Positions 25,636 through 58,514 of a DNA stretch of 64,000 nucleotides are shown here, one piece after another. Position numbers and translations under genes: made by a program. The stretch spans positions 3,816 to 67,815 of the forward strand of contig CAYSCN010000009.1 in assembly GCA_964429585.1 (NCBI GenBank). Reading direction: 5' to 3'. The notes beneath the pieces are model-generated. The model saw nothing but the letters and a program-made list of their open reading frames with translations. It was not told the DNA's origin and ran no database searches. Origin of the DNA: an uncultured bacterium. GTDB taxonomy: Bacteria; Desulfobacterota; Deferrimicrobia; J040. Position 1 is the first letter of the stretch. Every line of letters starts with the position of its first letter.

Positions 25636-25896
25636 CCGGACAGTCGAATTGCCGAACCACGTGGCTTCGAACCGCGAAAGCGCCGAACCAACGAGGCACC
25701 GAGGCACCGAGGAACCGAACCGCCGCATCTGCGAGCGGGTGGGCCGTGATTACGTGATTGCGTGGATGCGTGATTGCGTAAAATTCCACGTAACGACGCA
25801 ACCACCCAACCACTCAGCTACGAACCATCGTTTTCGTGGTTGGAACATTCGAATTTCGGGCTTGTTTCGTGTTTCGAATTTCGTGCTTCGTGCTTG
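25636..25896. repeat. Modular periodic-repeat palindrome, locus 1 (C arm, A hairpin 25741-25826, B arm)
   Basis: 8-mer CCGAACCN/CCGAGGCA tract, then (GTGATTGC)n...(GCAACCAC)n hairpin, then 7-mer TTCGAAT/TTCGTGC tract. Confidence 0.8.
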
Positions 25897-25918
25897 AAAA
25901 AACAATGGGAGGGGTCCG

Positions 25919-26845
25919 GTGAACAAGAAAAAACTTATCGAGGACGTACTGGCTGGGAAGGAAGTGGAACATCCGCCAGTGACGCTATGGTATCACTTCG
26001 GGGTTCACCACGGGAGCGGCGAGAGGTTCGCGGAACTTGCCCTCGACTATTTCTTCCACTACGACTTCGACTTCCTCAAGGTGATGAACGACTACTACTA
26101 TCCTCTGCCTGATGGGCTGGAAAGAATAAAAACCGCTGGTGACATAGAGAAACTCTGTCTTCTCACGATTGAGAAGACAGACTGGTCCGAGCAGTTGAAG
26201 GCACTCCGGGTCGTAGGTAGGAAACTCCGGGATGAGGCCTATTTCATAGATACCGTGTTCGACCCATGGCACACCTTCAAGAGAGCCCTGGCGGGTGAGA
26301 ATCTGGAGAGGCTGATGGAGGATGAGCCCGTGGCGACTCACAGGGGGCTCGAGATAATAACGGAGAACCTCATCAGATACTGCAAGAAGGCCATAGCCGA
26401 GGGAGCTGCCGGGATATTCCTTTCCATTCCCGCCGGAGAAGAGATGGTGTCAAGGGAGCAATTCCTCGAGTTCGTGAAGCCATATTCGAAAACGCTTCTG
26501 GAGGAGATAAAGAGTGAGGCGCTTTTCAACGTTGCGCATGTTCACGGAGAAAAGGTTTACATGGACGAGTGCCTAGACCTCCCCGCCCACGTGTTCAACT
26601 GGTGGGACAGGGGACCGCACGGACCTTCGCTTTCGGACGTGAAGGGTAAAATAAATGGCTGCGTGATGGGAGGGATCGACCACACGATTCTGCCGAGACA
26701 CACCCTGGAGTTCATCAGGAATCACGTGAGGGAAGGGAAAGCTCTCGGAGGGAATAGCAGGTTCATTCTGGCGGGTGGGTGCTCGATAAGCTCGTCGCTT
26801 CCCCCGAGGGCAATAAGAGTTATAGTGGATGAGGCGAGGAGATGA
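25919..26845 (+). CDS. Uroporphyrinogen decarboxylase / MtaA-like superfamily protein
   Basis: PPVTLWYHF, DFDFLKVMND, HVHG, CVMGGID, FILAGGCS. Confidence 0.75.
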   Translation: MNKKKLIEDVLAGKEVEHPPVTLWYHFGVHHGSGERFAELALDYFFHYDFDFLKVMNDYYYPLPDGLERIKTAGDIEKLCLLTIEKTDWSEQLKALRVVGRKLRDEAYFIDTVFDPWHTFKRALAGENLERLMEDEPVATHRGLEIITENLIRYCKKAIAEGAAGIFLSIPAGEEMVSREQFLEFVKPYSKTLLEEIKSEALFNVAHVHGEKVYMDECLDLPAHVFNWWDRGPHGPSLSDVKGKINGCVMGGIDHTILPRHTLEFIRNHVREGKALGGNSRFILAGGCSISSSLPPRAIRVIVDEARR

Positions 26846-26856
26846 TGTATTTTTGA

Positions 26857-26944
26857 AAACGGGCGGGGATGAACCGCCGCCCCTACGGAGTTTGCCCGAA
26901 AATAATGATATGTCGTAGGGGAGGGGTTTACCCCCTCCCGTTTT
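26857..26944. repeat. REP-like doublet (two GTAG-headed palindromes in inverted orientation)
   Basis: Minus strand GTAGGGGCGGCGGTTCATCCCCGCCC (26886-26861) and plus strand GTAGGGGAGGGGTTTACCCCCTCCC (26915-26939), flanked by AAAAC/GTTTT. Confidence 0.75.
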
Positions 26945-26949
26945 AAACG

Positions 26950-26989
26950 TGGCCCGAGGTTGCGTATTTGTGTGGTTGCGTGGTTGCGA
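26950..26989. repeat. Modular repeat locus 2: left half of an A-type octamer hairpin only
   Basis: GAGGTTGC GTATTTGT GTGGTTGC GTGGTTGC G; no complementary arm before the msrA stop. Confidence 0.65.
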
Positions 26990-27014
26990 GAAGGGCGAAA
27001 GTAAATCCCCCCTG

Positions 27015-27638
27015 CTATTTCCATATTTTCTTCAGGAACTGATCTCTCCCTGAGCCGTATCTGTAAAATTTGTACCTGAGAGGGTTCTTTTTGTAGTAGT
27101 CCTGGTGATATTCTTCGGCGGGGTAGAAGGGGCCTGCCGGCAGTATCTCTGTGACGATGGGAGAATCGAAGATGCCCGACCTCTGGAGCTTTGTCTTGGA
27201 TTCCTCAGCAGTCCGCTTCTGTTCGTCCGAGTGGTAAAAAATTGCTGTTCTGTACTGAGGCCCCCTGTCCACGAACTGACCTCCGGAATCGGTCGGATTC
27301 ACGTTTCTCCAGAAAACGTCGAGCAGCTCGGCGTATGACACGACAGACGGATCGAAGGTGACTCGAATTGCTTCCAGGTGACCGGTCGTTCCCGAAGATA
27401 CCTCTTCGTAAGTGGGGTTTTTCGTCGTTCCTCCGGTGTAGCCGACGATGGTATCGACAACGCCCTCCGTCGCGTCGAACGGAGGCTCCATGCACCAGAA
27501 GCACCCTCCGGCGAAAGTAGCGACTTCTAGCCCGGTTTCTTTTGATTTCCCGCTTTCTCCTTTCACGTCCAATCCTCCGAGTATCACTGTTCCCGCGAGG
27601 GCGAGCGCCATCAGAACCGCTTTGAATGTTTTTTTCAT
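27015..27638 (-). CDS. msrA: Peptide-methionine (S)-S-oxide reductase with N-terminal signal/anchor
   Basis: [51 protein letters not shown]. Confidence 0.93.
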
Positions 27639-27793
27639 CTGATTATATCCATGCCGTTTGTCATAAGATGCCGCTACTGCGGGATGGGTGCCTGTTTTTT
27701 CAAATCCGTTTCTTTTCCTATTCAACCGGATTTGATGCAAAATATGGTGAAGAGTATCGCGCTCGTTGTCAATTCATCCTTCAGGGGGGCGAA

Positions 27794-28210
27794 ATGGTTC
27801 ACACAGGAAGAATAGCTCTCACGACCAGAGGGTTTTGCGATTTCCACGACGTGACCGGAGAGGTGGAAGCGGTTCTGTCGGAATCGGGTGTTTCCAACGG
27901 GATTGTCACCGTCTTCGCAGTGGGCTCGACCTGCGCTGTCACCACGATCGAATTCGAGAGCGGAGCTTTGAACGACCTGAGGAAGGCGATAGAGAGAATC
28001 GCTCCCGCCGATATCCATTACGACCACGACAGAAGGTGGGGAGACGGCAACGGCTTTTCCCACGTGAGGGCTGCGCTTCTCAAACCCTCCGTCTCTATTC
28101 CTGTCATAGGTGGGCGTCTTTCGCTCGGCACGTGGCAGCAGGTTGTCTTCGTTGATTTCGACAACAGGGCGCGCCGCAGGGAGATAATCGTTCAGGTGGT
28201 GGGGGAGTGA
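27794..28210 (+). CDS. yjbQ: YjbQ/UPF0047 family protein
   Basis: GSTCAVTTIE, HD...GDGNGFSHVRAAL, LGTWQQVVFVDFD. Confidence 0.9.
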   Translation: MVHTGRIALTTRGFCDFHDVTGEVEAVLSESGVSNGIVTVFAVGSTCAVTTIEFESGALNDLRKAIERIAPADIHYDHDRRWGDGNGFSHVRAALLKPSVSIPVIGGRLSLGTWQQVVFVDFDNRARRREIIVQVVGE

Positions 28211-28215
28211 GCCGG

Positions 28216-28455
28216 GAATCTCGAAACAAATCCTTCCCTGATGAAACGCGTGGTTCGAAGTTCGTGTAGTTGGGTAGTTGACGTAGTTGGGTGGTTGTGT
28301 GGCTGCGTAATTTTACGCAAACACGCATCCACGATAACTACGCCACCACAAAAACACGAACCACTTTAACACCACGTTTCGGTCATTAGAATTTTGATAT
28401 TCGAATTCGTTTCGAGTTTAGTGCTTTGTACTTCGGATTTAGGATTCGCAATTCC
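28216..28455. repeat. Modular repeat locus 3 (B remnant, A hairpin 28250-28364, B arm 28376-28445)
   Basis: GTGGTTCG...(GTAGTTGG)n...(ACGCANNC)n...CGAACCAC hairpin followed by a GTTTCGGTCATT...TTCGAAT heptamer tract similar to 46108-46172. Confidence 0.8.
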
Positions 28456-28508
28456 TGCCTTCCCGCCCGGAGATGCCAACCTAGGACTGCTGAAATAATG
28501 GGAGGAGT

Positions 28509-29222
28509 TCAACCCTCGTCGACGTATTTCCGTATCAGACGGGCGCTTCGTTCGTCGATTTTTTCGAAGTAGACGGCGAATCCGGGGAAAGAGATCACCT
28601 TTCTCTCTTTGCCCTCGGGGCCGGACACGATCATGCCGGACGGACTCACTCTCGTGGAATACAGCACGGGGCCTTCCGCTTCTATTTTCTGGCTTCCAAT
28701 GCTGAAACGGACCTTGACGCGCTCACCTCTTTCGGGGGGCGAAACAGTCCTTATAAACGCGCCGAAGTAGCTGAGAGAGCTGATTTCGCTCACCTTTATG
28801 ATTCCTTTTACCTCGTATTCCACCGGGATGGACGTCCACAAACGGGGGGATTTTCTCGTGTTTTCCCCTTCGTAGAGAATCCCGCGAATGAGCGAGGAGA
28901 TTTCCTCGTCGGAGGAGGTGGGAGATATGGTTTGTTTCCCTCTCAAGGTAGAGTCTTCCGGCTCGTCTGCGCATATGATGAAGCCGCCGGCTTTGGAAAG
29001 TAGCTCAAAGGGGCTCTCTTCTTCCAGATATGAGAGGAAAGACGAGGAGAGGACCAGTAGACATTCTTCTATCGGTTGAGGGATCCTTCCGATGGAGGAT
29101 TTTTCCGGAGGAAAGACGATGACAGACAGCCCGCTCTCGGACAGAAGTGGTTTCACTCTTTCCTCCAGGAACCTGCCCATTCCTATTATGACGGCGCGCT
29201 TGAGAGGCATGCTTCTCCTCAC
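28509..29222 (-). CDS. PilZ domain protein with degenerate N-terminal domain
   Basis: RKSPR (RxxxR) then SLSYFGAFI, C-terminal GFAVYF. Confidence 0.7.
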   Translation of the reverse strand: MRRSMPLKRAVIIGMGRFLEERVKPLLSESGLSVIVFPPEKSSIGRIPQPIEECLLVLSSSFLSYLEEESPFELLSKAGGFIICADEPEDSTLRGKQTISPTSSDEEISSLIRGILYEGENTRKSPRLWTSIPVEYEVKGIIKVSEISSLSYFGAFIRTVSPPERGERVKVRFSIGSQKIEAEGPVLYSTRVSPSGMIVSGPEGKERKVISFPGFAVYFEKIDERSARLIRKYVDEG

Positions 29223-30466
29223 GTCATTATTTTCTCGTCGAGCCTTCCCTTGAGAATTCCCGAAATCACGGCTCTGTGCTGCCAGAGAACTTTCTCCTGT
29301 ATTTTCGTCGGGTCCAAATCTTCTCCAGACAGCTCATCATATGTTGTCGTTTTGGAAAAGAGAACTTCCCCGCTGCGGAATACGACGGTTACCACCTCTT
29401 TCCGGTCGGGACCCAGGTCCTCTGTTTGAACGTGAAGCCTGATTCCCTTGTGATTCACGTCGTCGTTTAGAACCAGGTGAGCTGTTTTCTTCTCCTGAGG
29501 GGGAAGATTCTCGATGAACTCTTCCAACGTCTGAGGCGGTTCAACCCTCTTTGCACGTCCATTCTTCGAAAGCTCCAGTATCTTGCAGGCTGCACGCTCG
29601 ATTTCCTGAACTCCAGCTGCATTCCCATTCAGAATGAAGGGCCTCATTTTCCTCACTGATTCCTCTATTTTCCTCGTGAAGGGGATGTTTCCCAGGTATC
29701 TGAGCTTGAGTCCCAAAAACTGAGCCGATACGGTTTCCAGCGCCTTGAAAACTTTTTCCCCTTCCTTTTCAGAGGCCATGTTTACCACGACGAGATAAGA
29801 AGAGCTGGAGATTTCCTCGAAAATTTCCTCGAATTTTTCCCTGTTCACCTTTTCTATTGCGGATATGAGCTTTTTTGGCTCCATTTCCCGCACCGAGCTA
29901 CTCGATGAATCCGGGAAGAGCTTCGACGCCAGATCTTTTCCTAATCTCCGGATTATCTTCCTGTGCAGGGATAGTTTCAGGAAACCGTACGCGTTCTGAA
30001 TCGCGGTGGGAGTGGGCGCTGTAACGATGACGCCGCATCTGGAGGCGTTGAAAAAGTCGAGATTGTTCAGAGTCGCGCCAGCTCCCACATCTACCACGAC
30101 GATGTCCGCATCGAGGCGGGATATTTCCCTTATCAGTCGTGCTTTTTGCGCGAAATTGGGATTTGCGATGGAAAGCAGGGCAGACGCTCCGCAGAGAAGC
30201 GAAAGGTTTTTCAATCCCGAGGGTATGAGGACTTCGGCAAGCGAATCGACTTCTCGCCTGATGAAATGTTTCAGCGTTTTTCCAGGCAACGTGATGCCGA
30301 AAAAGGTGTGAACGTTTGCTCCACCAAGGTCGGCATCGGCGAGGACCACTTTCGTGCCTTTTTTCGCCAGCGCGCAGGCCGCGTTCACTGCGAAGAGGCT
30401 CTTCCCGACTCCTCCCTTTCCGCCTCCGACCGACACGATTGTGGGACCGTTTCTTTCGCGTTTCAT
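29219..30466 (-). CDS. MinD/FlhG (FleN)-like ATPase with extra C-terminal domain
   Basis: Deviant Walker A GGGKGGVGKS, DADLGGAN, DVGAG, PTPTAIQNAYGF; C-terminal LHVQTEDLG domain. Confidence 0.85.
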   Translation of the reverse strand: MKRERNGPTIVSVGGGKGGVGKSLFAVNAACALAKKGTKVVLADADLGGANVHTFFGITLPGKTLKHFIRREVDSLAEVLIPSGLKNLSLLCGASALLSIANPNFAQKARLIREISRLDADIVVVDVGAGATLNNLDFFNASRCGVIVTAPTPTAIQNAYGFLKLSLHRKIIRRLGKDLASKLFPDSSSSSVREMEPKKLISAIEKVNREKFEEIFEEISSSSYLVVVNMASEKEGEKVFKALETVSAQFLGLKLRYLGNIPFTRKIEESVRKMRPFILNGNAAGVQEIERAACKILELSKNGRAKRVEPPQTLEEFIENLPPQEKKTAHLVLNDDVNHKGIRLHVQTEDLGPDRKEVVTVVFRSGEVLFSKTTTYDELSGEDLDPTKIQEKVLWQHRAVISGILKGRLDEKIMT

Positions 30467-30516
30467 TCCCTCTTCCTCGCCGCTTTTTTATGATATTCGG
30501 CAGATGAACGTGAGAA

Positions 30517-31305
30517 TTAAACTATCAGCCTCTTCCTCAAGGCCACAAGCGCCGCCCAGGTGAGAAAAAAGGAGACCACGACGAGGTAAAGGAGGTTGCG
30601 CAGAAGCGGCGCGGTGAGGTGATCGAGACAGATGTCTCTCGAGAGCTTTGTCAGGTGATAAAGAGGAAGAAATTCCGCGACCATCTTCGCCCAGCCGGGA
30701 AGAGTATCGATGGGGAAGAAGGTATCGCTGAAAAGGAACATGGGGGTGATTATCAGGAAGACCGGAAGGTTGAACGATTCTATAGTCGGCAGTATCCCGG
30801 TGAAGAACATACCCATCGCCCCGAAAAGCATTCCCCCTATGAAGGAGAGAGGTATCATCAAAAGTGCCGAAGGAAACTCGAGCAGACCGAACAGTGATAT
30901 GACCATCCCCATGAGAATGGTTCCGAGCATCGCCTTGGTGGTGCCCCAGAGGATCTCCCCGATTATGATTTCGTCTAGTGACAGAGGCGTGGCGAGCATC
31001 GCGTCGTAAGTTTTCAGGTAGTGCATTCTCACGAAAGAGGCGTAGGTGTTTTCGAAGAACGAGTGGTACATGATGTTGATTGCTATGAGCGAAGGGGCGA
31101 TGTAGGTTACGTAGGATATGTTTTCCCCCTTGTAGGGTATCTCGTGTACCAGCGCACCCAGACCCACTCCGAACGCGAGCAGGTAGAAAATCGGTTCGAG
31201 CACCGGCAGTAGAAAGTCCATGAACCACGTGCGTCGGTAGACGGTGAAGTTTCTGAACCAGACTTTGGTGAAACGGAGAGTTATGTCCGGGCACTTGAAA
31301 ATCAT
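30517..31305 (-). CDS. ABC-2 type permease, NodJ-like
   Basis: EPIFYLLAFGVGLG, YIAPSL, ITPMFLFSDTFFP, LPLYH. Confidence 0.88.
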   Translation of the reverse strand: MIFKCPDITLRFTKVWFRNFTVYRRTWFMDFLLPVLEPIFYLLAFGVGLGALVHEIPYKGENISYVTYIAPSLIAINIMYHSFFENTYASFVRMHYLKTYDAMLATPLSLDEIIIGEILWGTTKAMLGTILMGMVISLFGLLEFPSALLMIPLSFIGGMLFGAMGMFFTGILPTIESFNLPVFLIITPMFLFSDTFFPIDTLPGWAKMVAEFLPLYHLTKLSRDICLDHLTAPLLRNLLYLVVVSFFLTWAALVALRKRLIV

Positions 31306-32240
31306 TCCCTGAGGTTCCTCCCAGTGAGTTTCAGGAACACGTCTTCCAGGTTCCCCATCCTCAGAGCCACGTTCGTTCCAGGAAATCTCGTTGTGAGAGT
31401 CAGAAAGAGCCTCTCCGAGTCCTGGTTGTATATGAGGGCTCTCCGCCCGACTACTTCGAAGGATATGCCCATTTCGGACAGATAGCTCCGGATGTCTGCG
31501 TCTACTCCGTGTATTTCTATCACGAACCTCCCCGCCTCCTCTTCGACGAGCTTTTTCGGGTTGCCCTCGAGTATTTTCGTCCCGTTGTCCACGATTATTA
31601 TCCTGTCGCAGAGGTGGGCCGCTTCTTCCATGTAATGCGTGGTGAGTAGAATGGTCTTCCCGGAGCTCTTGAGTTCTTCGAGTCTCTCCCAGATCTTGTG
31701 CCTAGATTGAGGATCGAGACCGGTCGTGGGTTCGTCGAGAATCAGAAGTTCCGGATTGTTCACCAGCGATCGAGCGAGGGTGAGTCTTCTCTTCATCCCC
31801 CCAGAGAGGCGAACAACCTTCTCATGCCTTTTTTCGGTCAGTTCCATGAATTGGAGAAGCTCTTCCGTTTTTTCCCTCGCTTCCTTTCCTTTTATGTCGA
31901 AATATAAAGCATATATCCTCAGGTTCTCCTCAACGGTCAGGTCGGGGTCGAGATTGTCCTCCTGGGCGCAGACACCGAGGTGATACTTGGCTGTTCTGAC
32001 CTGATCGGGGATGCTGAATCCGAGCACCTCCAGCCTTCCACTCGTTTTGGGAACCACACCGTATATCATTTTTATCGTCGTGGTTTTGCCGGCTCCGTTG
32101 GGTCCAAGGATTCCGAAGCACTCTCCCCTGTAGACCTCGAATGAGAGGTCCCTGACAGCAACGGTTTTTCCGTAGGTTTTTTCGAGCGATTCGGCTCTGA
32201 TTACGATTTCTGTTCTTTTGAGCGGGTCTGAGTCCTGCAT
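31302..32240 (-). CDS. ABC transporter ATP-binding protein, NodI-like
   Basis: GPNGAGKTT, QEDNLDPDLTV, LSGGMKRR, LDEPTTGLDPQSRH. Confidence 0.9.
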   Translation of the reverse strand: MQDSDPLKRTEIVIRAESLEKTYGKTVAVRDLSFEVYRGECFGILGPNGAGKTTTIKMIYGVVPKTSGRLEVLGFSIPDQVRTAKYHLGVCAQEDNLDPDLTVEENLRIYALYFDIKGKEAREKTEELLQFMELTEKRHEKVVRLSGGMKRRLTLARSLVNNPELLILDEPTTGLDPQSRHKIWERLEELKSSGKTILLTTHYMEEAAHLCDRIIIVDNGTKILEGNPKKLVEEEAGRFVIEIHGVDADIRSYLSEMGISFEVVGRRALIYNQDSERLFLTLTTRFPGTNVALRMGNLEDVFLKLTGRNLRE

Positions 32241-32252
32241 TACGACTCCGGT

Positions 32253-45794: not shown

Positions 45795-45810
45795 GACTTG
45801 CCGAGGCCCC

Positions 45811-46271
45811 GGGCCACCGAACTACCGATATATCAAGCACGAAATTCTAAATCCGAAGCACGAAACAAATCCGAAATTCAAATGTCCAAAACATGGAATG
45901 AGAGATGATCCGTAGTTGTGTAGTTGCGTAGCTGCGTGGTTGGGTGTGGTTTTTCGCAACTACGATAACCACGCAACCACGTATCCACGAACCGTTTTTA
46001 CCGCAAGTCGGTTCGTAGTTGAGTGGTTGAGTAGTTGGGTAGTTGCGCGGGTTTTACACAATCACGCAGCTACACAACCACGTATCTACGGACCAAGCTT
46101 ATACTGCGTTTCGGTCATTTGAATCTGCGTATTCGAATTTGTTTTGTATTTCGTGCTTAGGATTTAGAATTTAATCAATTCCGCATTCTGCAATCCGAAT
46201 TCCGAATTACCAGATGAGCAATCGCCGGCGGCTCGGAAGTTCGGTGGTTCGGATGATCGGCGGTTCGGTGA
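45811..46271. repeat. Modular repeat locus 4: nested C[B[A][A]B][D]C palindrome
   Basis: B arms 45835-45892 and 46108-46172 are inverted copies; two A hairpins 45907-45993 and 46010-46094; D tract 46178-46208; C tracts at both outer ends. Confidence 0.85.
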
Positions 46272-46346
46272 TTATTTTTGCAACCAATTCCCAATTAGCT
46301 GCATCCTAAAGGGCAAAACCAAACAATAATCACAGGAGGGGAAAAT

Positions 46347-49715: not shown

Positions 49716-49770
49716 GTTTTTAGTTTAGCAGGAAGAGACAATGTAATAGGGGTGTTTGTTTAAATACGCC

Positions 49771-49846
49771 ATTGCGGATTTCGGATTGCAGATTTCGGTA
49801 TTTTACGTCCCACATTCTGCAATCCGCAGTCCGAATTCCGAAATAC
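49771..49846. repeat. Modular repeat locus 5: D-type heptamer palindrome
   Basis: ATTGCGG ATTTCGG ATTGCAG ATTTCGG ... CTGCAAT CCGCAGT CCGAATT CCGAAAT; same unit as 46178-46208 and 52596-52615. Confidence 0.75.
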
Positions 49847-49855
49847 CGGTGGTGG

Positions 49856-51301: not shown

Positions 51302-51331
51302 TTCCTCCTCCCGAACTCATTGGTCAATTTA

Positions 51332-51856: not shown

Positions 51857-51860
51857 TCTT

Positions 51861-52403
51861 TCACAGTTCCATGGTTTCTATTGGTTTTAGCGTTATGTTC
51901 ACGTTCAGGTCTTTCTTGACCTCTTCCAGGACCCCCTGAAGCTCATCCATGTCGACTTCCTCCGGAATGTCTATTTCCATTATCATCACGTAAATGGGTC
52001 TCTCCTTCTCGCCCACAAGATGCGTGTGGAGATCCGTTATGTTTACTCTCCTGGCGGCTAACTCGGTGGAGACCCTGTACACGATTCCAGGCCTGTCTGC
52101 TCCATATACGGAGAGAATGTATGGGTGTCCCTTGTATCCTCTCTCGTGGCAGACGTCCTCGTCCCTGACCGTGGTGACCGAGATGGTTAGCCCCTCCAGT
52201 TTTAGCTGCGCGAAGGCTTTTTCGAACTCCTCGGTGGTGTTGAACTTCTCGTGGAACACGATCAGAATCATCGCGAACTGGCCGGCCAGAATCGTGCAGG
52301 AGGAATCCTCTATGTTGCATCCCAGTTCATAGAGGACCTTGCTGACCGAGGCGACTATGCCCGGCCTGTCCTTTCCTATCACGCTCACGGAAAAGTGGCC
52401 CAT
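51861..52403 (-). CDS. Tandem ACT-domain protein (GcvR-like)
   Basis: Two ACT repeats GKDRPGIV and GADRPGIV. Confidence 0.85.
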   Translation of the reverse strand: MGHFSVSVIGKDRPGIVASVSKVLYELGCNIEDSSCTILAGQFAMILIVFHEKFNTTEEFEKAFAQLKLEGLTISVTTVRDEDVCHERGYKGHPYILSVYGADRPGIVYRVSTELAARRVNITDLHTHLVGEKERPIYVMIMEIDIPEEVDMDELQGVLEEVKKDLNVNITLKPIETMEL

Positions 52404-52460
52404 ACCTCACCCCTTCTCATTTTTCAGACAAATATAACACAAAATAACGGCGCAGATGGG

Positions 52461-52700
52461 ACGAACATACGAATCACGAGCCACCGAACCGCCGAGGCTC
52501 CGAGGGTTCGTGGATACGTGGTTGCGTGGTTATCGTGGTTGCGAAAAAGCACCCAACCACCCAGCCACTCAATTACGCGCCTACGAACCATCACTCCGCC
52601 ATCCGAATTCCGAATTGGCGGATTGACATCCGGCGGCGGTTCGGAGCTTCGGATGTTCTGATGCTCGGTTGCTCGGAGGTTCGGCGGTTCCGAGGTTCGT
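52461..52700. repeat. Modular repeat locus 6: C[A][D]C palindrome
   Basis: (ACCGAACC-like)n left tract, A hairpin 52505-52589, short D tract, (GGTTCGGN)n right tract. Confidence 0.85.
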
Positions 52701-52806
52701 TGCCTTAGGTGATGAATTTCCTTGAATTTCAAAACGTCCGGTGCTAATTTTTAACAATTACGGATTTCCCGGATTTGCGGATTTTCGAAACTCAGGCGGG
52801 GTGGTG

Positions 52807-54354
52807 ATGAGGCGGATTCAAATTTTGCTGGCAGCGGCTGTTTTTTTCCTCGTTCTTTCTGCCGGTTCGGTTCTGGCTACATCGGCGAAGGTGGCGATAC
52901 TTCCATTCGATGGTATATCTCAGGAAGACATATCCTTCATCCTGAAGGCGGTGCCCAGGCTTCTAAAATCCAGGATTCAGGCTTTGACCGGCGAAGAGGT
53001 CCTCCTGACCGAGCGGGAGGGTCTTGAGAAGCTGGCTCCCGATTACGTCGTCACGGGAACTGTTACCAAGCTTGGCGGCGCGTATTCCGTCGATGTGGTG
53101 GTTTCCGACTCCTCTGGGAAGAAAGTCGCCGGCTCGTTCGTGACAGCGAAGGACGAAAACGGGATAATATCCGGCCTCGACTCGCTCGCAGCCGACCTGG
53201 TAGGGAAAATTCCAGCCTTCGCAGTTCGAGCTCCAGCGAAGGCAGAATATGCGAAAGAAGAAAGGCCGGCTGGGGCTGCTGCTTTACCTCTTCCCGGCAG
53301 GGAGATTTCTTCCGCTTCACCTGCCGCGGCTGAGGGAAAAACAGAGGATGAATTCAGGTCCATAAAGAGACTGAAGATTCTGGGAGAGCTCCCAGGAGAG
53401 ATAATAAGGGTCGCCGCCGGTGAGGCGGACGGAGACGGGAAGGTTGAGGTTGCATTTTCTTCGGTCAACAGGCTCTTCATATACAGGTTTGACGGGGAGG
53501 AACTGAGAAGGATTTACTTCATGGACAGGGAAAAGGGTGCCGAAATCCTGAACCTGAACTTTTTCGACCTGGAAGGGGACGGGAAGGAGGAGCTGATAGT
53601 AACGGAGAAAAGCGGCGATTTCCTCCAGAGCTTCATCCTCGCCTGGAGGGATGGCAGGTTCAGGGTGATAGCCAAAAAACTTCCTTATTATTTCAACGTT
53701 CTCGATGATTTCCGAGGGAAGAGGGTTCTCGCAGGTCAGAGGATGGGGTTCGGTACTGCATACGTTGACAGGGCTCACGTCCTTTCCTGGAACGGGAGCG
53801 GATTCGAGGAGAAGGAAAAGATAAAGATGCCCGAGTCGGGTGAGTTCACGGCGGGAATCATTAACGTAAACGCGTTGAGGTTCAAGGGCGAGCAAAGGCT
53901 TGTGTGGCTCGACGAATACGAGAAACTGAAGGTGTTCGATTTGAACGGAAAGCTCCTTTTCAAGAGCAAGGAGGCCTACTCAGGTGCCCTGCTCTCGTTT
54001 ATAATACCGAGCGAGCCTTTGAAGCTGGAGGGACACACTAATTTTTACGTGAAAGGGAGGGTGGTAAAGGTCGGAGAAAAACAGGGTTTGCCTCTTCTGC
54101 TTGTCAGATTTGCTCCCGAGCCTGCCCTGATTAAGAGCGTGAGAAAATTCGACTGGTCGAAGCTAGAAGTTCTGGAATGGGACGGGATTTCCTTTGTGGA
54201 AAAGGCTTCCAGCGAAAAGGTGTCGGATTTGATGACGGACTTCGCAGTTATGGATGTAGGGGAGAAGAAGTATATTGTCGCTCCGGTCGTGGAGACGACG
54301 ACTTTTGGGACTGTTGCCGAGACCTCTAAACTACTGCTTTTCATTTTAGAATGA
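52807..54354 (+). CDS. Exported FG-GAP/VCBS repeat protein
   Basis: Signal peptide, VAILPF N-terminal domain, GEADGDGKVE and DLEGDGKEE repeats. Confidence 0.7.
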   Translation: MRRIQILLAAAVFFLVLSAGSVLATSAKVAILPFDGISQEDISFILKAVPRLLKSRIQALTGEEVLLTEREGLEKLAPDYVVTGTVTKLGGAYSVDVVVSDSSGKKVAGSFVTAKDENGIISGLDSLAADLVGKIPAFAVRAPAKAEYAKEERPAGAAALPLPGREISSASPAAAEGKTEDEFRSIKRLKILGELPGEIIRVAAGEADGDGKVEVAFSSVNRLFIYRFDGEELRRIYFMDREKGAEILNLNFFDLEGDGKEELIVTEKSGDFLQSFILAWRDGRFRVIAKKLPYYFNVLDDFRGKRVLAGQRMGFGTAYVDRAHVLSWNGSGFEEKEKIKMPESGEFTAGIINVNALRFKGEQRLVWLDEYEKLKVFDLNGKLLFKSKEAYSGALLSFIIPSEPLKLEGHTNFYVKGRVVKVGEKQGLPLLLVRFAPEPALIKSVRKFDWSKLEVLEWDGISFVEKASSEKVSDLMTDFAVMDVGEKKYIVAPVVETTTFGTVAETSKLLLFILE

Positions 54355-54387
54355 GCTGGAAAGGGTTAATATATGGAGAATAAAAAC

Positions 54388-54416
54388 TTGACAATCCCTT
54401 GCGCGAATGGTATTTA
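54388..54416 (+). promoter_or_regulatory. Sigma-70-type promoter upstream of the porin gene (putative)
   Basis: Perfect TTGACA, 17-nt spacer ending TGG, then TATTTA. Confidence 0.5.
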
Positions 54417-54576
54417 TCCAGAAAAAAACGCGGTTTTTTTTCTGGCACCGCAGGCGAAAAAGGAAGGCGGTGAATACACATCTTAAACTGGGAGGGGGTG
54501 ATAGAAGGGAAACCGAGGTTTTCGTCGTTAATTGCAAGCGTCATCAAACCAACTCAAATTTCAAGGAGGGGAAGTT

Positions 54577-56034
54577 ATGAGAAGATTTTGGCTGATTTCT
54601 CTCGTAGTTGCTCTGGCAGTGCTTCTGACACTTCCGGCTTTTGCCGAGCACGACATTGGCGGTTTCATCAGGATCAAGGGATGGGTTTCAAACTTTGGCC
54701 CGAACGCGGGCTACATTGAGGGGTACAACACCTCTTTGAAGAATCAGCTGTCGAAAGATCCCAGCACGACGTCTTTCGTGGAGGAGAGGGCGAGACTGAA
54801 ATTCAAATTCAAAGGAAATGAGTACGTAACCGGTATCGCTTACTTCGAGCTCGACCAGGACTGGGGTGGTTCCGCCTATACGAACGGCCGTAACGTTGGC
54901 GGTGCTCTCGAAGCGGACACCACGAATCTGGAAACAAAGAACCTCTACATCGATTTCAGGGTGCCCGATACCACTCTTGCCCTTCGCGCGGGTGTTCAGA
55001 ACGTGACGGATGCCTATGCTGGAACGATTGTCGGCGTGGCTGATATGGCCGGGGTGTTCGGAACCTACAAGATCGACCCCGTTTCCTTCCGTTTCGGCTG
55101 GGCGAAGTGGTGGGAAAACGACAGGACTCAAGCTGACGACGTTGATTTTTATCTCCTGGAAGGTAAGTTTACGCCTGTGGAAAACTTCAAACTCGGTCTC
55201 AACCTTTACCTGATCAAGGATGGTGTTGGTGCTGACGGGTATGTGGATAAAAGAGAAAAAGGAACTGGCGGTGGCACGATTCCTGTTGGTCAGAGAGGGC
55301 CTGCTCTTGCGTGGACACCTGCGGAGATCGATGTCAGAGGGAAAGCATCTCTCTATTACGTCGGTTTTGACGCGTCCTACAAGCTCGACGTTGCGACGAT
55401 CAGCGGGTTCTTCTTCTACAACTTCGGAACTTTCGACAAGGCAGCACTTGGTGGGACCAAGGACCTGGACGTTGGCGGTTTCGCTGCCGATCTCAGAGCC
55501 GATGCGAAGCTCGGCCCCGGCAAGGGCTTCATTGAGCTTCTCTACGTCTCCGGCGACGACAACCCGAACGACGACTCCTACGACAGCATCCTGACCGCCA
55601 GCAACTACAACCTGGCTGCTTCCTTCTACTACAGAATGGACACTCAGATTCTTCTTCCCAACGGCGACGACATCAACTCCTCGCCAGCTCTTGCTTACGA
55701 CGTCGCCAACAAGGGAAGAGGTCTTCTCGCAGTGGCAGCTGGATACAGCATGAAGCTGACGGATGACCTCACCGGGAAGATAGGGGTCGGTTACATGCAG
55801 GATGCGGAGAAAGATTACGCGAACACTGACCCATTCGGTGGAACTGTGAGGAAGGCCGGGCAGGAAGCGAGCGCGTTCGAGATCAACGCGAAGGTCAACT
55901 ACCAGATTACCAAGGGGCTCACGTTCGGTCTCTATGGCGCCTACGCTTCGCTCTCCGATTACTATGCGGGCTCCACGGCTGATGAGGCTGATGACCTCTA
56001 CATGACCTACGCCAGGCTCCAGCTCAAGTTCTGA
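54577..56034 (+). CDS. Major outer membrane porin-like protein (deltaproteobacterial OmpJ-like)
   Basis: Signal peptide ending AFA; EERARL, YFELD..WG, LETKNLYIDF; alternating aromatic strands; C-terminal Phe (ARLQLKF). Confidence 0.75.
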   Translation: MRRFWLISLVVALAVLLTLPAFAEHDIGGFIRIKGWVSNFGPNAGYIEGYNTSLKNQLSKDPSTTSFVEERARLKFKFKGNEYVTGIAYFELDQDWGGSAYTNGRNVGGALEADTTNLETKNLYIDFRVPDTTLALRAGVQNVTDAYAGTIVGVADMAGVFGTYKIDPVSFRFGWAKWWENDRTQADDVDFYLLEGKFTPVENFKLGLNLYLIKDGVGADGYVDKREKGTGGGTIPVGQRGPALAWTPAEIDVRGKASLYYVGFDASYKLDVATISGFFFYNFGTFDKAALGGTKDLDVGGFAADLRADAKLGPGKGFIELLYVSGDDNPNDDSYDSILTASNYNLAASFYYRMDTQILLPNGDDINSSPALAYDVANKGRGLLAVAAGYSMKLTDDLTGKIGVGYMQDAEKDYANTDPFGGTVRKAGQEASAFEINAKVNYQITKGLTFGLYGAYASLSDYYAGSTADEADDLYMTYARLQLKF

Positions 56035-56060
56035 TCGAACTCGAGCGCTAAATCGGACTG

Positions 56061-56093
56061 AAAGGCGGTTCCCTGAAGGGAACCGCCTTTTTT
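56061..56093 (+). terminator. Rho-independent terminator after the porin gene
   Basis: AAAGGCGGTTCCCT-GA-AGGGAACCGCCTTTTTT. Confidence 0.9.
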
Positions 56094-56187
56094 GTGGTTC
56101 TCACCGTCCTCATACACTTGAGGAAACCTCCCGCCTTCGGTGTTAATCTAAATATATGAGTCAAAAAAGCACGGTGAGGGTGATGAG

Positions 56188-56658
56188 ATGAGGAGACTAA
56201 GGGGTAATGTTATAGCTACGATGGTCGTGATGGTGCTGGCTGGTTTTTTGTTCGTTATCAATACTTCGGAGGTTTCATACGGCGGATTTCTGACCGTTGC
56301 GGGGATAGGAGGGGATGGGAACGTCTATCTCGACATAGAGATTGAAAAGGTGGAACTGGACAGGACAGAGCTTGCCCGGGGCGATACCCTGAACGTGAAG
56401 GTTACTATCAGGAACAGGGGAGACATGGCGATGAGCCAGGCTCAGCTTTTTCTCATAGCCGGTGAGAAAGTGGTGGAATCCAGGCTCGTTGACCTTTATC
56501 TTTTCGGCGTCGATGAAAGGCAGGTGGTGACGATATCGTGGAACACCGGGGATGTGGAACCTGGCGAGTATCAGCTGAGAGTTGAAATTCCGATAATCCC
56601 CGATGCGGACGAGTTCGACAACGAATACACGGTGCCGGGGAAGGTCATCATCAGGTGA
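56188..56658 (+). CDS. CARDB/Ig-like domain protein
   Basis: N-terminal TM; GDTLNVKVTIRNRG...WNTGDVEPGEYQL...DEFDNE. Confidence 0.7.
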   Translation: MRRLRGNVIATMVVMVLAGFLFVINTSEVSYGGFLTVAGIGGDGNVYLDIEIEKVELDRTELARGDTLNVKVTIRNRGDMAMSQAQLFLIAGEKVVESRLVDLYLFGVDERQVVTISWNTGDVEPGEYQLRVEIPIIPDADEFDNEYTVPGKVIIR

Positions 56659-56663
56659 GTGAC

Positions 56664-56807
56664 TGGTTCGGTGGTTCGTTGTCTCGTAATTGCGTGGTTG
56701 AGTGGTTGAGTAGTGGCGTTTGATTTTACGCAATCACGCATCTACGCATCTACGTAACCACGGACCATCTGTGCTCAGATGCGGAGGTTCGGTGGTTCGG
56801 AGGTTCG
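56664..56807. repeat. Modular repeat locus 7: A hairpin inside a C-type tract
   Basis: GGTTCGGT GGTTCG...(GTGGTTGA)n...(ACGCATCT)n...CGGACC ATCTGTGCTCAGAT GCGGAGGTTCGGTGGTTCGGAGGTTCG; right half resembles the reverse complement of 25715-25784. Confidence 0.8.
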
Positions 56808-56812
56808 TTTTT

Positions 56813-57559
56813 TCACGGTTTATTCAAAAATTCCATCAACCTACGCGCGTTGCGGGGTGCCGATGCTCCCACGTCGTTGTTGAAATAAACGTACACTTCA
56901 TTGCTTTCGCACTTTCTCACGGCTTCTGCTATTTTTCTCAGCTCCTCGTCGCTGTAATCGTAGGCGTACCACTTCGTAATTCCGTGAAGCCTGAGATAGG
57001 AGAATTCGGGACACCCGAAAATGTATCCGGGGATGCCCTCGAATCCTGGCGCGCTCACTGCCACCATCGCGATACCCGAATCCGTGAGGGTTTCTCTCGT
57101 TTCATCATCGAACCAGGAGATGTGGCGGAATTCCACGGCGTTTTTGAAATGGCTCGAAAGGGAGGAAGCAAGAAGCCTCATGAAATCGTGATCTTTTTTC
57201 ACCGATGGTGGGAGTTGAAACAAAACTGCCCCGAGTTTGTCACCGAGAATCTCGATGGTCTCGTAAAATTCCCTCAGGTAGCCCTCGCAGTCTCTGAATT
57301 TCTTCAGGTGTGTTATGATTCTCGGGGCTTTAATGGCGTAAATGAATCCATCGGGAGCTTCCTTTAGCCACCTCCTGACCCTTTCTTTCTTCGGGAAGTT
57401 GTAGAAGGTGGAATTTAGCTCGACGGTGTTGAATTTAGATGAGTAGTATGAGAACCATCCTGACTGGGGAAGTTCGTTCGGGTAAAAAACTCCCTTCCAG
57501 GCTCTGTAGAACCAGCCGGAGCAACCGACCCGTATCGTTTTACCCCTTTTCCCGCTCAC
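56813..57559 (-). CDS. DUF72 domain protein
   Basis: VGCSGWFY..W.G.FYP, VELNSTFY, KAPRIITH, LFQLPPS, EFRH, YLRLHG, VYFNND. Confidence 0.9.
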   Translation of the reverse strand: MSGKRGKTIRVGCSGWFYRAWKGVFYPNELPQSGWFSYYSSKFNTVELNSTFYNFPKKERVRRWLKEAPDGFIYAIKAPRIITHLKKFRDCEGYLREFYETIEILGDKLGAVLFQLPPSVKKDHDFMRLLASSLSSHFKNAVEFRHISWFDDETRETLTDSGIAMVAVSAPGFEGIPGYIFGCPEFSYLRLHGITKWYAYDYSDEELRKIAEAVRKCESNEVYVYFNNDVGASAPRNARRLMEFLNKP

Positions 57560-58269
57560 TTCCCGAACAGTTTCTTTATGCCCTTAAGTCCCTCTTCTAT
57601 CTTTTCCCTTGCTTTTTCAGGATTTTTCAGGGATTTGACCGCTTCCTTCACGGCTTTCTTCTGAAGCTCCTTTGCCAGAGAGTCGAGAATTTTTTTCAGT
57701 CCTCCCTCTGGACCGAGCCTGAAGGGTCCTTCGAGTGACATCCTTTTTATCTGCAGGGGGTTTTTCTCAGCTATCTTCGGGGCGAAAAATTTCACGTTTT
57801 CAATCGTGATCCTAGAAATCGTCACGTGGATGGGCTTTTTCTCTCCCGGGGTCCGGGGTTTTTGGGAGCTCGCTTTTTTCCTTTTTTTGCCCCCGAATGC
57901 TTCAGTCACGTTGGTTCTTACGCCCGAGCGTTCTACCCTGAAGGTCAGATCCCTGAGTTTGAGTTCCTCGATGTTTATTTTTTTGTCGATCAGCTCTCTG
58001 AGAGATACCCTGGTGAAACCGTTTCCGAGGATGAGCATCTCGTTGCTGTTGAAACCCTCCGGATTAAATATTTTCAGATTTTCGATGGTCAGTTCGCCGG
58101 AGAAAAGCCCCACGTGGACTCTCTCCACTTTCCCACCGGACGCGAGTTCTCTCGCGAGAAGGCGATTCACCGCATCGGTGACCATTGTGTCGCCGTAGGT
58201 TGCTATCGTGACGCCGAAGGCGACTATCGCGAGTATCACGACCACCAGGACTCCTATCGCTTTTTTCAC
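57556..58269 (-). CDS. AsmA-like membrane-anchored protein
   Basis: N-terminal TM; LFSGELTIENLKIFNPEGF motif; GGAGG RBS before GTG. Confidence 0.65.
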   Translation of the reverse strand: MKKAIGVLVVVILAIVAFGVTIATYGDTMVTDAVNRLLARELASGGKVERVHVGLFSGELTIENLKIFNPEGFNSNEMLILGNGFTRVSLRELIDKKINIEELKLRDLTFRVERSGVRTNVTEAFGGKKRKKASSQKPRTPGEKKPIHVTISRITIENVKFFAPKIAEKNPLQIKRMSLEGPFRLGPEGGLKKILDSLAKELQKKAVKEAVKSLKNPEKAREKIEEGLKGIKKLFGK

Positions 58270-58326
58270 GCTCACCCTCCTTTTCCGGGATATATTTATA
58301 ATACACTTTTTCACCGCCCGTTTAAT

Positions 58327-58514
58327 TCAAGCACGAAGCACTAAATTCGAAACCCTACAAATCCGCCAATTCAAAATACAAATGTCCCAAACATATCCGG
58401 AGAAATGGTCTGTGGTTGAGTAGTTGCGTAGTTGGGTGGTGGGGTGTTGTTTCTCGCAACCACGATAACCACGCAACCACGCATCCACGAACCCTCGGCG
58501 GCTCGGTGGTTCGA
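58327..58514. repeat. Modular repeat locus 8 (B arm, A hairpin 58407-58493, C arm)
   Basis: AAGCACG AAGCACT AAATTCG...AAATGTCCCAAAC, octamer hairpin, CTCGGCGG CTCGGTGG TTCG; shares the 39-nt core with loci 4 and 6. Confidence 0.85.

Follow-up and report, generated by a model that had tools for sequence, protein, structure and literature searches.

Modular hairpins built of seven- and eight-base words in the gene spacers of a Deferrimicrobia genome

Related repeat systems

REP, BIME and REPIN elements with their RAYT partners are extragenic palindromes that code for nothing and occur in many copies, often as clustered mosaics; short-read assemblies break at them, and orthologous sites can lack them. 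All of these traits are shared by the elements described here, from a 64,000-nucleotide stretch (the window) of the genome of an uncultured bacterium (2.34 Mb, in an assembly of 68 contigs); the BOX elements of pneumococci are a modular analogue. REPs pair with a RAYT gene that they flank and are 20–40 nt long with a conserved GTAG head, whereas in the present elements tandem words make up arms of 30–60 nt, and neither of the genome's two Y1 genes has modules at its flanks. The STRR heptanucleotide repeats of heterocystous cyanobacteria are short tandem heptamer runs concentrated between genes; their words differ from lineage to lineage, and they are not known to have a function. The heptamer repeats of Xanthomonas and Nostoc (PMC4692102) and of Beggiatoaceae (PMC4679880) have the same features as far as those accounts describe them, and the present elements likewise contain short tandem heptamer runs between genes. 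However, the arrays of all these groups are, in the sources consulted, mainly direct and some form G-quadruplexes, whereas here they are inverted and nested, include octamers and have linkers copied along with them.

Sites of this kind were catalogued in 2009 in Geobacter metallireducens, as paired tandem octa- and heptanucleotide sites of classes 1–3 (Aklujkar et al., PMC2700814). The system is therefore not wholly uncharacterised, as an earlier note on this DNA had held it to be. By the text and supplement legends of that account, with which the comparison is made rather than with its alignments, the Geobacter sites likewise lie between genes in many copies, each of three to five tandem 7–8-nt units and mostly paired on opposite strands at variable distance; insertion sequences lie at a fixed distance from some of them. 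The words differ, but the class 1 consensus GTTGCTYN and the A word described below (GTTGCGTR in the same rotation) have the core GTTGC in common. The 2009 account read the sites as putative sites of an IHF/HU-type global regulator, whereas the empty orthologous sites, copied composites and placement found here argue for selfish repeats. Module nesting and a link to PF05635, both features of the present elements, go without mention for Geobacter in the passages and legends consulted (PMC2700814).

The 23S rRNA intervening sequence of Coxiella burnetii has complementary termini forming a long stem, an S23p (PF05635) ORF and an RNase III cut (PMC4990558). As described in that source, it resembles the present elements in its fold-back with complementary termini, in sometimes having a PF05635-family ORF, in its sporadic occurrence and in being called selfish, and module D matches the arms of a PF05635-ORF cassette in relatives. 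In contrast, the copies here lie between protein-coding genes rather than in rRNA and are ORF-less, and their arms are periodic and ~70–80% complementary where the 28 bp of the Coxiella stem pair almost perfectly. Avd, a PF05635-like accessory protein of diversity-generating retroelements (DGRs), has by the account consulted (PMC10053308) the same fold and family as the cargo between periodic arms in relatives. Unlike DGR systems, this genome has neither a reverse transcriptase nor a PF05635 gene, and it showed no template or variable repeats of the DGR kind.

Modules of the eight loci

The features of the eight loci lie between window positions 25,650 and 58,518 (Table 1). The earlier note described periodic-repeat palindromes at eight places, and Tandem Repeats Finder (TRF) reports period-7 or period-8 arrays at all eight, in agreement with direct reading; all are arrays of 7- or 8-base words, with inverted pairs in most. 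TRF lists no array of the modular-hairpin kind before 25.6 kb, as the note had also observed for the first 25 kb, or after 58.5 kb. The 27.0-kb locus has only one unpaired four-unit A arm, plus two GC-rich REP-like hairpins that had gone unlisted.

Direct reading confirms the words given earlier for modules A–D. The A hairpin consists of GTRGTTGN units, a loop and NCAACYAC units. C-type arms are made of octamer words of the CCGAACCA / CCGAGGCA kind, and the C′ arm at locus 4 of GGTTCGGW units. At locus 4 the B1 heptamers are AAGCACG, AAATTCT and AAATCCG and the D arm words are ATTCCGC, ATTCTGC, AATCCG and AATTCCG; the B2′-type arm at locus 1 has the inverted heptamers CGAATTT and CGTGCTT. Modules A and B are not independent of each other as had been supposed, but form one ~255-nt composite, B1-A-B2′, at no fewer than 10 unlinked sites. 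A fifth module, absent from the earlier note, consists of GC-rich REP-like hairpins of the GTAGGGGAGGGG-TTTA-CCCCCTCCC kind; its pattern has 24 loose matches in the genome, 9 of them within 300 nt of a periodic locus, and matches at C9:30675 and C9:30733.

The module types are fold-back elements in their own right, and they nest in each other's apex. Each paired B in this genome surrounds one or two A hairpins. Four B loci were examined in three relatives (G002, G003 and G004); three are B1-apex-B2′ with a non-periodic apex of 35–60 nt, and none of the four has an octamer hairpin inside B. In the present lineage an A hairpin became lodged in a B apex, after which the composite was copied to at least 10 unlinked spacers. 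Unit number differs among copies, and copies swap segments or overwrite one another. Non-periodic linkers also recur, the 13-mer AATGACCGAAACG being exact at ~18 sites.

Most of the complementarity between arms follows from the shared word; it is 0.71–0.81 in the correct register versus 0.55–0.71 when shifted by one unit. As single-stranded DNA each of the eight hairpins has a better predicted fold than its dinucleotide shuffles have on average (z −1.8 to −4.7), and for four of them none of 200 shuffles folds as well. Arm-to-arm covariation, for which the earlier note had proposed a test, is weak at the R/Y position (98 of 168 pairs Watson-Crick, odds ratio 1.67, p = 0.14).

Table 1. Features of the eight loci (window positions; TRF, Tandem Repeats Finder)
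Feature	Position	Strand	Evidence
Locus 1, unpaired C-type arm	25650..25722		direct reading; TRF period 8 and 16 at 25683-25721
Locus 1, A hairpin	25741..25832		TRF and reading; ssDNA fold −15.9 kcal/mol, z −1.76; nhmmer C9:29554-29722
Locus 1, B2′-type arm	25833..25897		TRF period 7 at 25863-25895
Locus 2, two GC-rich REP-like hairpins, inverted orientation	26860..26940		direct reading and pattern
Locus 2, lone A-type arm, four octamers, no partner arm	26957..26988		TRF and reading
Locus 3, A hairpin	28252..28366		ssDNA fold −27.6 kcal/mol, z −4.68; 0/200 shuffles as good
Locus 3, B2′ arm, linker the complement of AATGACCGAAACG	28367..28450		nhmmer C9:32066-32258
Locus 4, outer C arm, left	45803..45828		direct reading
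Locus 4, B1 arm, linker AAATGTCCAAAACA	45835..45895	+	TRF and reading; nhmmer seed
Locus 4, A hairpin 1	45905..45996		fold z −2.74
Locus 4, A hairpin 2	46008..46099		fold z −3.81; inside core near-identical at C28 and C10
Locus 4, B2′ arm, partner of B1	46100..46176	+	composite as a whole folds into one long hairpin
Locus 4, single D arm	46177..46212		28/33 bases identical to right arm of G005 PF05635 cassette
Locus 4, outer C′ arm	46226..46272		TRF and reading
Locus 5, gene-less D hairpin, heptamer arms, loop ~12 nt	49765..49848		TRF and reading; fold z −3.10
Locus 6, C arm, left	52470..52505		direct reading
Locus 6, A hairpin	52500..52592		TRF and reading; fold z −3.07
Locus 6, short D-like palindrome	52593..52630		20/24 bases as in G005 cassette arm
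Locus 6, C′ arm, ~eight octamers	52636..52700		TRF period 8, 7.6 copies, 52639-52699
Locus 7, A hairpin capped GGTTCG / CGGACC	56664..56768		TRF and reading; fold z −3.95
Locus 7, C′ arm	56782..56812		TRF and reading
Locus 8, B1 arm, linker AAATGTCCCAAACA	58330..58395	+	nhmmer C9:62134-62309
Locus 8, A hairpin	58408..58494		TRF and reading; fold z −2.19
Locus 8, C′ arm abutting ABC-3 stop codon	58495..58518		direct reading and ORF annotation

Copies in the genome and in its relatives

A periodicity scan of the whole genome, counting windows with at least 19 of 24 self-matches, finds 54 regions of period 8 and 15 of period 7; the other periods (5, 6, 9, 10, 11 and 12) give 2, 1, 1, 1, 0 and 6 regions. 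The three-unit A-arm pattern with up to two mismatches has 65+49 matches and the reversed pattern none and, together with the shuffle folds, these counts place the excess of arrays far above chance. The arrays make up 62 loci, a contig end lies no more than 150 nt from at least 15 of these, and the k-mer depth of module A is ~800 versus a background of ~30 in the probable source run. The family is dispersed genome-wide as the earlier note had proposed: nhmmer, seeded with the stretch of the locus 4 B1 arm, returns 128 matches, 41 of them near full length. The spacers occupied by the 44 classifiable loci are tandem (18), convergent (15) and divergent (11). The note's statement that none lie within genes is correct for the family; long ORFs contain a few tracts, and these are either repeats crossed by a spurious ORF or unrelated to the family. 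The distribution of modules across genomes is patchy, with module B in three of six family relatives and none of 34 genomes of the sister family, and A-type arrays in five of eight genomes of f21, a family that is unrelated but belongs to the same phylum, and in none of eight of the sister family.

Loci on C9, C28 and C10 have ~230 near-identical bases in common within unrelated flanks, and sequence comparison indicates that hairpins have been copied between unlinked loci in the gaps between housekeeping genes, in line with the mobility claimed earlier. BLAST identities between copies are 92.7% over 233 nt and 82.7% over 376 nt; most copies are old (66–80%). Gene conversion among copies already in place, instead of fresh insertion, could account for the near-identical three-locus core. 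At C28 the A1 left arm is one unit long, at C9 and C10 four or five, and a 27-nt unit indel distinguishes the relatives G005 and G006.

The elements are dispensable insertions, missing from the corresponding spacers of relatives, where the earlier note had suggested looking for empty sites. The SmpB|AhpC spacer is 552 nt in this genome versus ~108 repeat-free nt in a genome of the sister genus (G003), and this genome and G001 have a conserved AhpC promoter-proximal stretch downstream of the insert. A 9.8-kb stretch of G001 syntenic with window 24–30 kb is array-free, and the DUF72 3′ flank carries A and C modules in this genome versus a D module in G001. The comparisons yielded no junction-exact filled/empty pair, hence no target site or target-site duplication is defined.

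The note had named, for other genomes, a link to four-helix-bundle and GxxExxY genes, of which the first part holds in relatives. At 21 of the 23 loci examined that have a PF05635 (Avd-like four-helix-bundle) gene, an array lies no more than 500 nt away, and 14 of the 23 have arrays on both sides; up to 200 nt from the gene the arrays have a density of 3.51 per kb, versus 0.48 per kb further off at the same loci; PF13366 (GxxExxY/PDDEXK_3) is found in none of seven family genomes. In G005 and G006 the PF05635 genes lie between D-word arms, and no PF05635 gene at the loci examined has A-, B- or C-word arms. Window positions 46177–46209 at locus 4 match the right arm of the G005 cassette at 28 of 33 bases, and this D arm is also present at ~17 places in G005 (89–94% match); the locus 5 D hairpin matches the cassette at 25 of 28 bases (right arm) and 16 of 20 (left arm). 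No cargo other than PF05635 turned up between the periodic arms of relatives, and cassettes common to two genomes are in syntenic context in all three pairs found, none occurring in two different contexts. Module D appears to be an empty form of the cassette that holds a PF05635 gene between the same arms in relatives.

Explanations for the periodic hairpins

The modules are probably gene-less copies of a selfish non-coding palindromic repeat family with arms of three to eight 7- or 8-base words, and the interpretation in the earlier note is partly supported. An RNA-level role, as terminators, 3′ stabilisers or RNase III sites that uncouple cistrons, like REPs or 23S rRNA intervening sequences, is unlikely. 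Several copies are inside probable operons or right after stop codons (locus 8 is between ABC-3 and DUF748, both on the same strand, and locus 4 begins 9 nt after the SmpB stop), the composites have predicted RNA folds with long stems (−74 to −158 kcal/mol for 230–364 nt), and the Coxiella stem with its PF05635-family ORF is reported to be cut by RNase III (PMC4990558). However, G:T and A:C mismatches are equally common (35 and 35 in A stems; 40 and 49 in B stems, p = 0.40), and this strand symmetry, favouring the RNA of neither strand, argues against a selected RNA fold. Moreover, 11 of the 44 loci are between divergent genes, no T-run was read 3′ of the stems at the eight loci, Rfam has no match and the elements are not conserved at orthologous sites; effects on RNA are likely side effects rather than the cause of the elements' existence. 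It is rather improbable that the arrays are sites for a nucleoid-associated or global regulator (IHF/HU) as proposed for G. metallireducens, with one protomer per word and paired arrays bending or bridging DNA. Period and phase are kept better than exact sequence, the weak unit-specific pairing of arms fits word-by-word reading better than a selected stem, and the GTTGC core is common to the A word and the Geobacter class 1 consensus as published. Against such sites, arrays are missing from the same spacers in relatives although the AhpC promoter-proximal sequence is conserved, 15 of the 44 loci are between convergent genes and promoterless, long non-periodic linkers and whole composites are copied together with the arrays, the words vary by module and by genome, and an 8-bp period would, by the geometry of DNA, keep no single face of the double helix.

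It is very doubtful that the arrays originated where they stand, in AT/GC-skewed spacers by slippage during replication and by fold-back synthesis, and never moved between loci. Unit number varies between near-identical copies, as in the A1 left arm and the G005/G006 indel, and single unpaired arms occur (loci 1 and 2), but linkers, nesting order and the ~230-base core recur at unlinked loci with unrelated flanks, for which independent local origin cannot account; slippage explains array growth and shrinkage, not dispersal. Regarding the enzyme acting in trans that the earlier note invoked, the search yielded none. A Pfam scan of 38 ORFs (23.9–64 kb of the window) finds no transposase or integrase, as the note had reported, and the genome, which has the heaviest A/B/C load, has no PF05635, reverse transcriptase or DDE_Tnp_1 gene, so that a mobilising protein is missing from the assembly; an assembly in 68 contigs, with breaks at these repeats, may conceal one. 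HUH enzymes recognise DNA hairpins, and the genome has two intact Y1_Tnp (IS200/RAYT-like) genes (44.2 and 39.7 bits, both above cut-off) with HUH-type and tyrosine motifs visible in their translations and no further transposase family among those searched. That these enzymes move the modules as REP/REPIN-type elements, acting on single-stranded hairpins, is nevertheless hardly credible: neither gene is flanked by A–D modules, both being amid copies of the 10-mer GGTGTCAGAG instead (50 occurrences versus ~4.5 expected), and the A–D hairpins are 85–115 nt with periodic arms, unlike the 20–40 nt GTAG-headed REPs, for which the GTAG-headed GC-rich fifth module is the better candidate.

Copying of the selfish repeats would act on DNA rather than RNA, as the strand-symmetric mismatches, the blank Rfam search and the occupation of tandem, convergent and divergent spacers alike suggest. 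The word arrays would be the cis-acting part, forming a hairpin or cruciform on single-stranded DNA, or might instead provide microhomology for template switching and ectopic recombination. Elements in spacers are presumably tolerated because genes are left uninterrupted, and those transcribed within operons would fold into long, imperfectly paired stems and affect mRNA incidentally, much as REPs do.

Periodic arrays and their modules

The genome carrying the window comprises 2.34 Mb in 68 contigs and is complete by marker genes. From 23.9 to 64 kb, 38 ORFs were scanned, all of them ordinary housekeeping genes; they include those for an outer-membrane efflux protein, URO-D, MsrA, Tol-Pal, TsaD, KsgA, panBCD, SmpB, AhpC, an aldehyde dehydrogenase, def and a Znu-type ABC transporter; the earlier note saw no transposase, integrase or cas gene, and this holds for all ORFs scanned. 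Tandem Repeats Finder (TRF) recovers period-7 or period-8 arrays of 2.3–7.6 copies at all eight loci of the earlier note (see table) and no comparable array in the rest of the window, and the module words agree on direct reading.

These periods stand out genome-wide. At least 19 of 24 self-matches are seen in 54 genome windows for period 8 and in 15 for period 7, versus 2, 1, 1, 1, 0 and 6 for periods 5, 6, 9, 10, 11 and 12, and the unit consensus sequences group into a few word families. Periodic tracts cluster into 62 loci, situated between tandem (18), convergent (15) or divergent (11) genes or at contig ends (another 18); inverted array pairs enclose loops of 0 to 256 nt. At least 15 loci are no more than 150 nt from a contig end, so the family breaks the assembly and is under-counted. 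In the probable source run of the assembly contigs also stop at repeats, and word depth over the A module is ~800 versus ~30 nearby. Three DNA runs contain contig ends at repeats, raised k-mer depth there and chimeric joints between family members, and no form skipping an element was found among their contigs.

Scanning the whole genome for the modules gives 74 arrays of at least three units of A (an octamer hairpin, GTRGTTGN/NCAACYAC) and 128 nhmmer matches, 41 near full length, to a 191-nt query of A plus the heptamer arms B (one iteration). The nhmmer alignment shows that A and B, taken in the earlier note as separate reusable modules, form a single element in this genome. B1 heptamers with a terminal linker of the AAATGTTCAAAACA kind are followed by one or two A hairpins and then by the B2′ arm, whose start is the complement of AATGACCGAAACG; the whole is ~255 nt and folds as one long hairpin. 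Ten such B1-A-B2′ composites were found, plus many halves at contig ends, and every paired B encloses A. The octamer arms C lie outside the composite, and D (ATTCCGC/ATTCCGA) is a separate heptamer hairpin. Loose linker patterns were too permissive (367 and 81 matches, mostly chance) and exact matches alone were used; pairwise identities including 40-nt flanks, which underestimate similarity, are left out.

The locus at 27.0 kb, one of the eight in the earlier note, contains only a single A arm, adjoining two GC-rich hairpins. Hairpins of this type, with a GTAG head and of the GTAGGGGAGGGG-TTTA-CCCCCTCCC kind, are a fifth recurrent neighbour of the arrays; a loose pattern gives 24 matches in the genome, of which ~15 are clear; 9 of the 24 have a periodic locus no more than 300 nt away. 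They often adjoin B arms and look like classical REP.

Two further repeats in the window lie within ORF calls. A short array of CGGATTT-like units is just inside the longest call of an ORF of 537 aa with no Pfam match, whose real start probably comes after them. A 15-nt-period array of CCTCCGCCGAATCCT (6.7 copies by TRF) lies inside overlapping ORF calls. It probably encodes a low-complexity stretch, Gly/Ser-rich or similar, and is unrelated to the A–D family.

Locations of repeat features. G000 is the genome under study, C its contigs (C9, CAYSCN010000009.1, contains the window), G001 a family relative
Feature	Sequence	Location
Period-7/8 arrays (TRF)	window	25.7, 27.0, 28.3, 45.8–46.3, 49.8, 52.5–52.7, 56.7 and 58.4 kb
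Contig stops in probable source run	window	45.9, 46.2, 52.5 and 58.4–58.5 kb
nhmmer query, B plus A	window	45815–46005
D arm aligned with PF05635 cassette	window	46177–46209
GC-rich GTAG-headed hairpins	window	26860–26940
GC-rich GTAG-headed hairpins	G000	C5:96983, C15:19791, C40:6722, C47:2392, others
CGGATTT-like units	window	52741–52800 (TRF 52761–52784)
ORF call containing these units	window	52741–54354
CCTCCGCCGAATCCT array	window	20121–20214
Gene order compared	window	23905–30466
Gene order compared	G001	C186:1–9800
GGTGTCAGAG clusters, outside window	G000	C5:20291–33290, C20:55–1558
GGTGTCAGAG, one copy, outside window	G000	C9:40

Copying between loci and repeat-free spacers in relatives

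The 552-nt composite at 46 kb is 82.7% identical over 376 nt to a locus on contig C28 and 92.7% identical over 233 nt to one on C10. All three have ~230 near-identical bases in common, from the A1 apex through A2 into B2′, but their flanks are unrelated and the number of units in the A1 left arm differs in each. Sequence has thus moved from one locus to another, whether inserted anew or through conversion of an older copy, and the arrays have undergone slippage. As to MITE features, the arms are inverted arrays; neither a target-site duplication nor a sharp common terminus appears in alignments of the 41 copies or of these three.

Empty sites in relatives, which the earlier note suggested looking for, do occur. 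SmpB and AhpC are also adjacent in the sister genus (G003), with a repeat-free spacer of ~108 nt, and the promoter-proximal stretch of AhpC, downstream of the insert, is conserved in G001 and the genome under study. A 9.8-kb G001 contig with the genes of window 24–30 kb, in rearranged order, contains no array. The DUF72 3′ flank has A and C modules in the genome under study and a D module in G001, and the aldehyde dehydrogenase–def spacers of two other relatives (G004 and G005), which are longer than in the genome under study, contain no periodic repeats. Among 80 SmpB loci kept from metagenome contigs, only one exceeds 60% identity (82%); this locus is followed by a different gene and lacks arrays, and thus offers no empty-site comparison.

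Gene order in the region covered by the G001 contig differs between genera: the MsrA-to-ParA-like block is inverted and URO-D lies on its other side. In the genome under study the breakpoints fall at the 25.7- and 27.0-kb repeat loci, and an inverted-repeat-mediated rearrangement is possible.

Relatives also bear on how the composite arose. In G002, G003 and G004, three of four B loci examined are organized as B1-apex-B2′ with a non-periodic apex of 35–60 nt and the fourth is B2′ only; none of the four contains an octamer hairpin within B. A-type arrays alone, paired or single, are present in five of eight genomes of an unrelated family of the same phylum and in none of eight from the sister family. 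On the simplest reading, A and B would have been independent fold-back elements at the start, A would have entered the B apex in the lineage of the genome under study, and the composite would have multiplied afterwards. At two loci in a genome of a distant family (L105, G322:C8; L106, G322:C5), the 75–200-nt spacers between paired octamer arrays contain a ATGTCCAA motif resembling the B–A linker AAATGTCCAAAACA, which could be chance.

Stem pairing and candidate mechanisms

Folded as single-stranded DNA, all eight hairpins are better than the shuffle mean (z −1.8 to −4.7). Complementarity of the arms is 70–80%, and because it falls only from 0.71–0.81 in the true register to 0.55–0.71 when shifted by one unit, it is mostly due to the shared word. 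Covariation in the stems, raised in the earlier note, is weak: the R/Y position of A units is Watson-Crick paired in 98 of 168 true partners versus 92 of 232 one unit away, which indicates some unit-specific pairing, but among true partners the R/Y association does not reach significance (odds ratio 1.67, p = 0.14).

If selection maintained an RNA fold on one strand, G:U should be tolerated and A:C avoided. Mismatches in the A stems are exactly balanced (35 G:T, 35 A:C) and those in the B stems nearly so (40 and 49, p = 0.40). This symmetry favours palindromes at the DNA level, decaying by transitions; with the odds ratio above and no Rfam match at gathering thresholds, it argues against a structured non-coding RNA. 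Conserved regulator sites or terminators fit poorly with the copying between loci, the placement in spacers and the absence from orthologous spacers of relatives. Mobilisation by a RAYT was considered since the genome encodes two Y1 (IS200/RAYT-like) transposases, and was rejected: the flanks of both genes contain copies of the 10-mer GGTGTCAGAG and no A–D module. GGTGTCAGAG occurs 50 times in the genome (~4.5 expected), with 17 copies within 13 kb around one Y1 gene and four around the other, and may be the cognate repeat of these genes or a regulator site of a polysaccharide locus. The assembly contains no RVT_1 (reverse transcriptase) or DDE_Tnp_1 transposase gene, and its four integrase-family genes are on other contigs. 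The catalyst that copies modules A–D may be a host function or hidden in assembly gaps.

PF05635 cassettes and known periodic repeats

The earlier note mentioned similar arms around two kinds of genes in other genomes. Those around four-helix-bundle (23S rRNA IVP-like) genes, here PF05635, are borne out in relatives: 21 of 23 PF05635 loci have a periodic array within 500 nt, 14 of them on both sides and inverted. Array density is 3.51 per kb within 200 nt of the gene versus 0.48 per kb further out at the same loci (~7-fold), a generous control because the distant parts are mostly coding. The second kind, GxxExxY (PDDEXK_3), is absent from all seven family genomes. PF05635 genes are present in four of six family relatives, in none of 70 sister-family genomes, and in several copies in each of the five unrelated-family genomes with A-type arrays. 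The genome under study gives no match (100% complete by marker genes, although repeats may be unassembled).

The arm word differs in each cassette (7 or 9 nt) and none of the 23 loci uses A, B or C words; arm homology is confined to module D. The PF05635 gene of G005 and G006 has a (GCGGAAT)n arm on one side and (ATTCCGM)n on the other, as the right arm. In the D arm of the window near 46.2 kb, 28 of 33 bases are identical to this right arm in G005, the end of the arm included; the D hairpin at 49.8 kb agrees at 25 of 28 bases with the right arm and at 16 of 20 with the left. G005 has another ~17 matches of 35 nt to the D arm (89–94% identity). The elements resemble a PF05635 fold-back cassette of the intervening-sequence type in that their inverted arms can pair into a long stem and that the D arms are homologous, but they have no PF05635 ORF between the arms. 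The earlier note envisaged genes between paired arms, yet the four candidate pairs of the genome under study enclose no ORF of note, two of them being separate loci with housekeeping genes between them.

At the G005/G006 site G004 has no cassette; its spacer there is unrelated, so that no exact junction can be read. A 27-nt unit indel in one cassette arm distinguishes G005 from G006. All three cassette pairs shared between species are syntenic and none occurs in two contexts, so no cassette is caught moving.

REP elements are imperfect palindromes of 20–40 nt with a conserved GTAG head. In contrast, the A hairpins are 85–115 nt with periodic arms, the GTAG head occurs only in the separate GC-rich hairpin, and the Y1 genes are not flanked by A–D modules. 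Cyanobacterial STRR are arrays of heptamers. Others have been published for Xanthomonas/Nostoc (PMC4692102) and Beggiatoaceae (PMC4679880). In Geobacter metallireducens, Aklujkar et al. 2009 describe 48 paired sites with four tandem GTTGCTYN octanucleotides, along with two other classes (units TCTCCGTS and MTYCTGA), and propose binding of an IHF/HU-type global regulator (PMC2700814). The loci described here are similar in their tandem 7–8-nt units and in being multicopy, intergenic and mostly inverted pairs at variable distance. Compared with the consensuses in the figure legends of that paper, the A word in the same rotation, GTTGCGTR, shares only the core GTTGC, and the words of B, C and D bear no relation to the Geobacter units. 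The window elements belong to a kind already known and poorly understood. Full-text literature searching found no paper linking periodic arms to PF05635.

PF05635 resembles Avd of diversity-generating retroelements (PMC10053308). The 23S rRNA intervening sequence of Coxiella, a fold-back element that RNase III excises, has a PF05635 protein as its ORF (PMC4990558). A speculative reading, which we consider rather improbable, is that periodic hairpins are the cis sites of cross-phylum selfish cassettes with PF05635 as their only gene. The word arrays in the arms of a cassette would be recognised by the protein encoded between them, which would bring in a host polymerase or recombination step to copy the fold-back; the hairpins of the window would be non-autonomous riders or orphans, and ORF-bearing 23S rRNA intervening sequences would be this element inserted into an rRNA gene.

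Periodic repeats take up a considerable part of the spacers in this small genome and break its assembly, and because they lie within housekeeping operons they matter for its annotation, binning and the reading of its regulatory signals. The empty orthologous sites and copied composites argue that the similar Geobacter sites are selfish repeats rather than, as published, putative sites of a global regulator. That periodic arms accompany PF05635 genes in two unrelated families of the phylum gives a reproducible context to a widespread protein family with no assigned function, and suggests an origin for rRNA intervening sequences.
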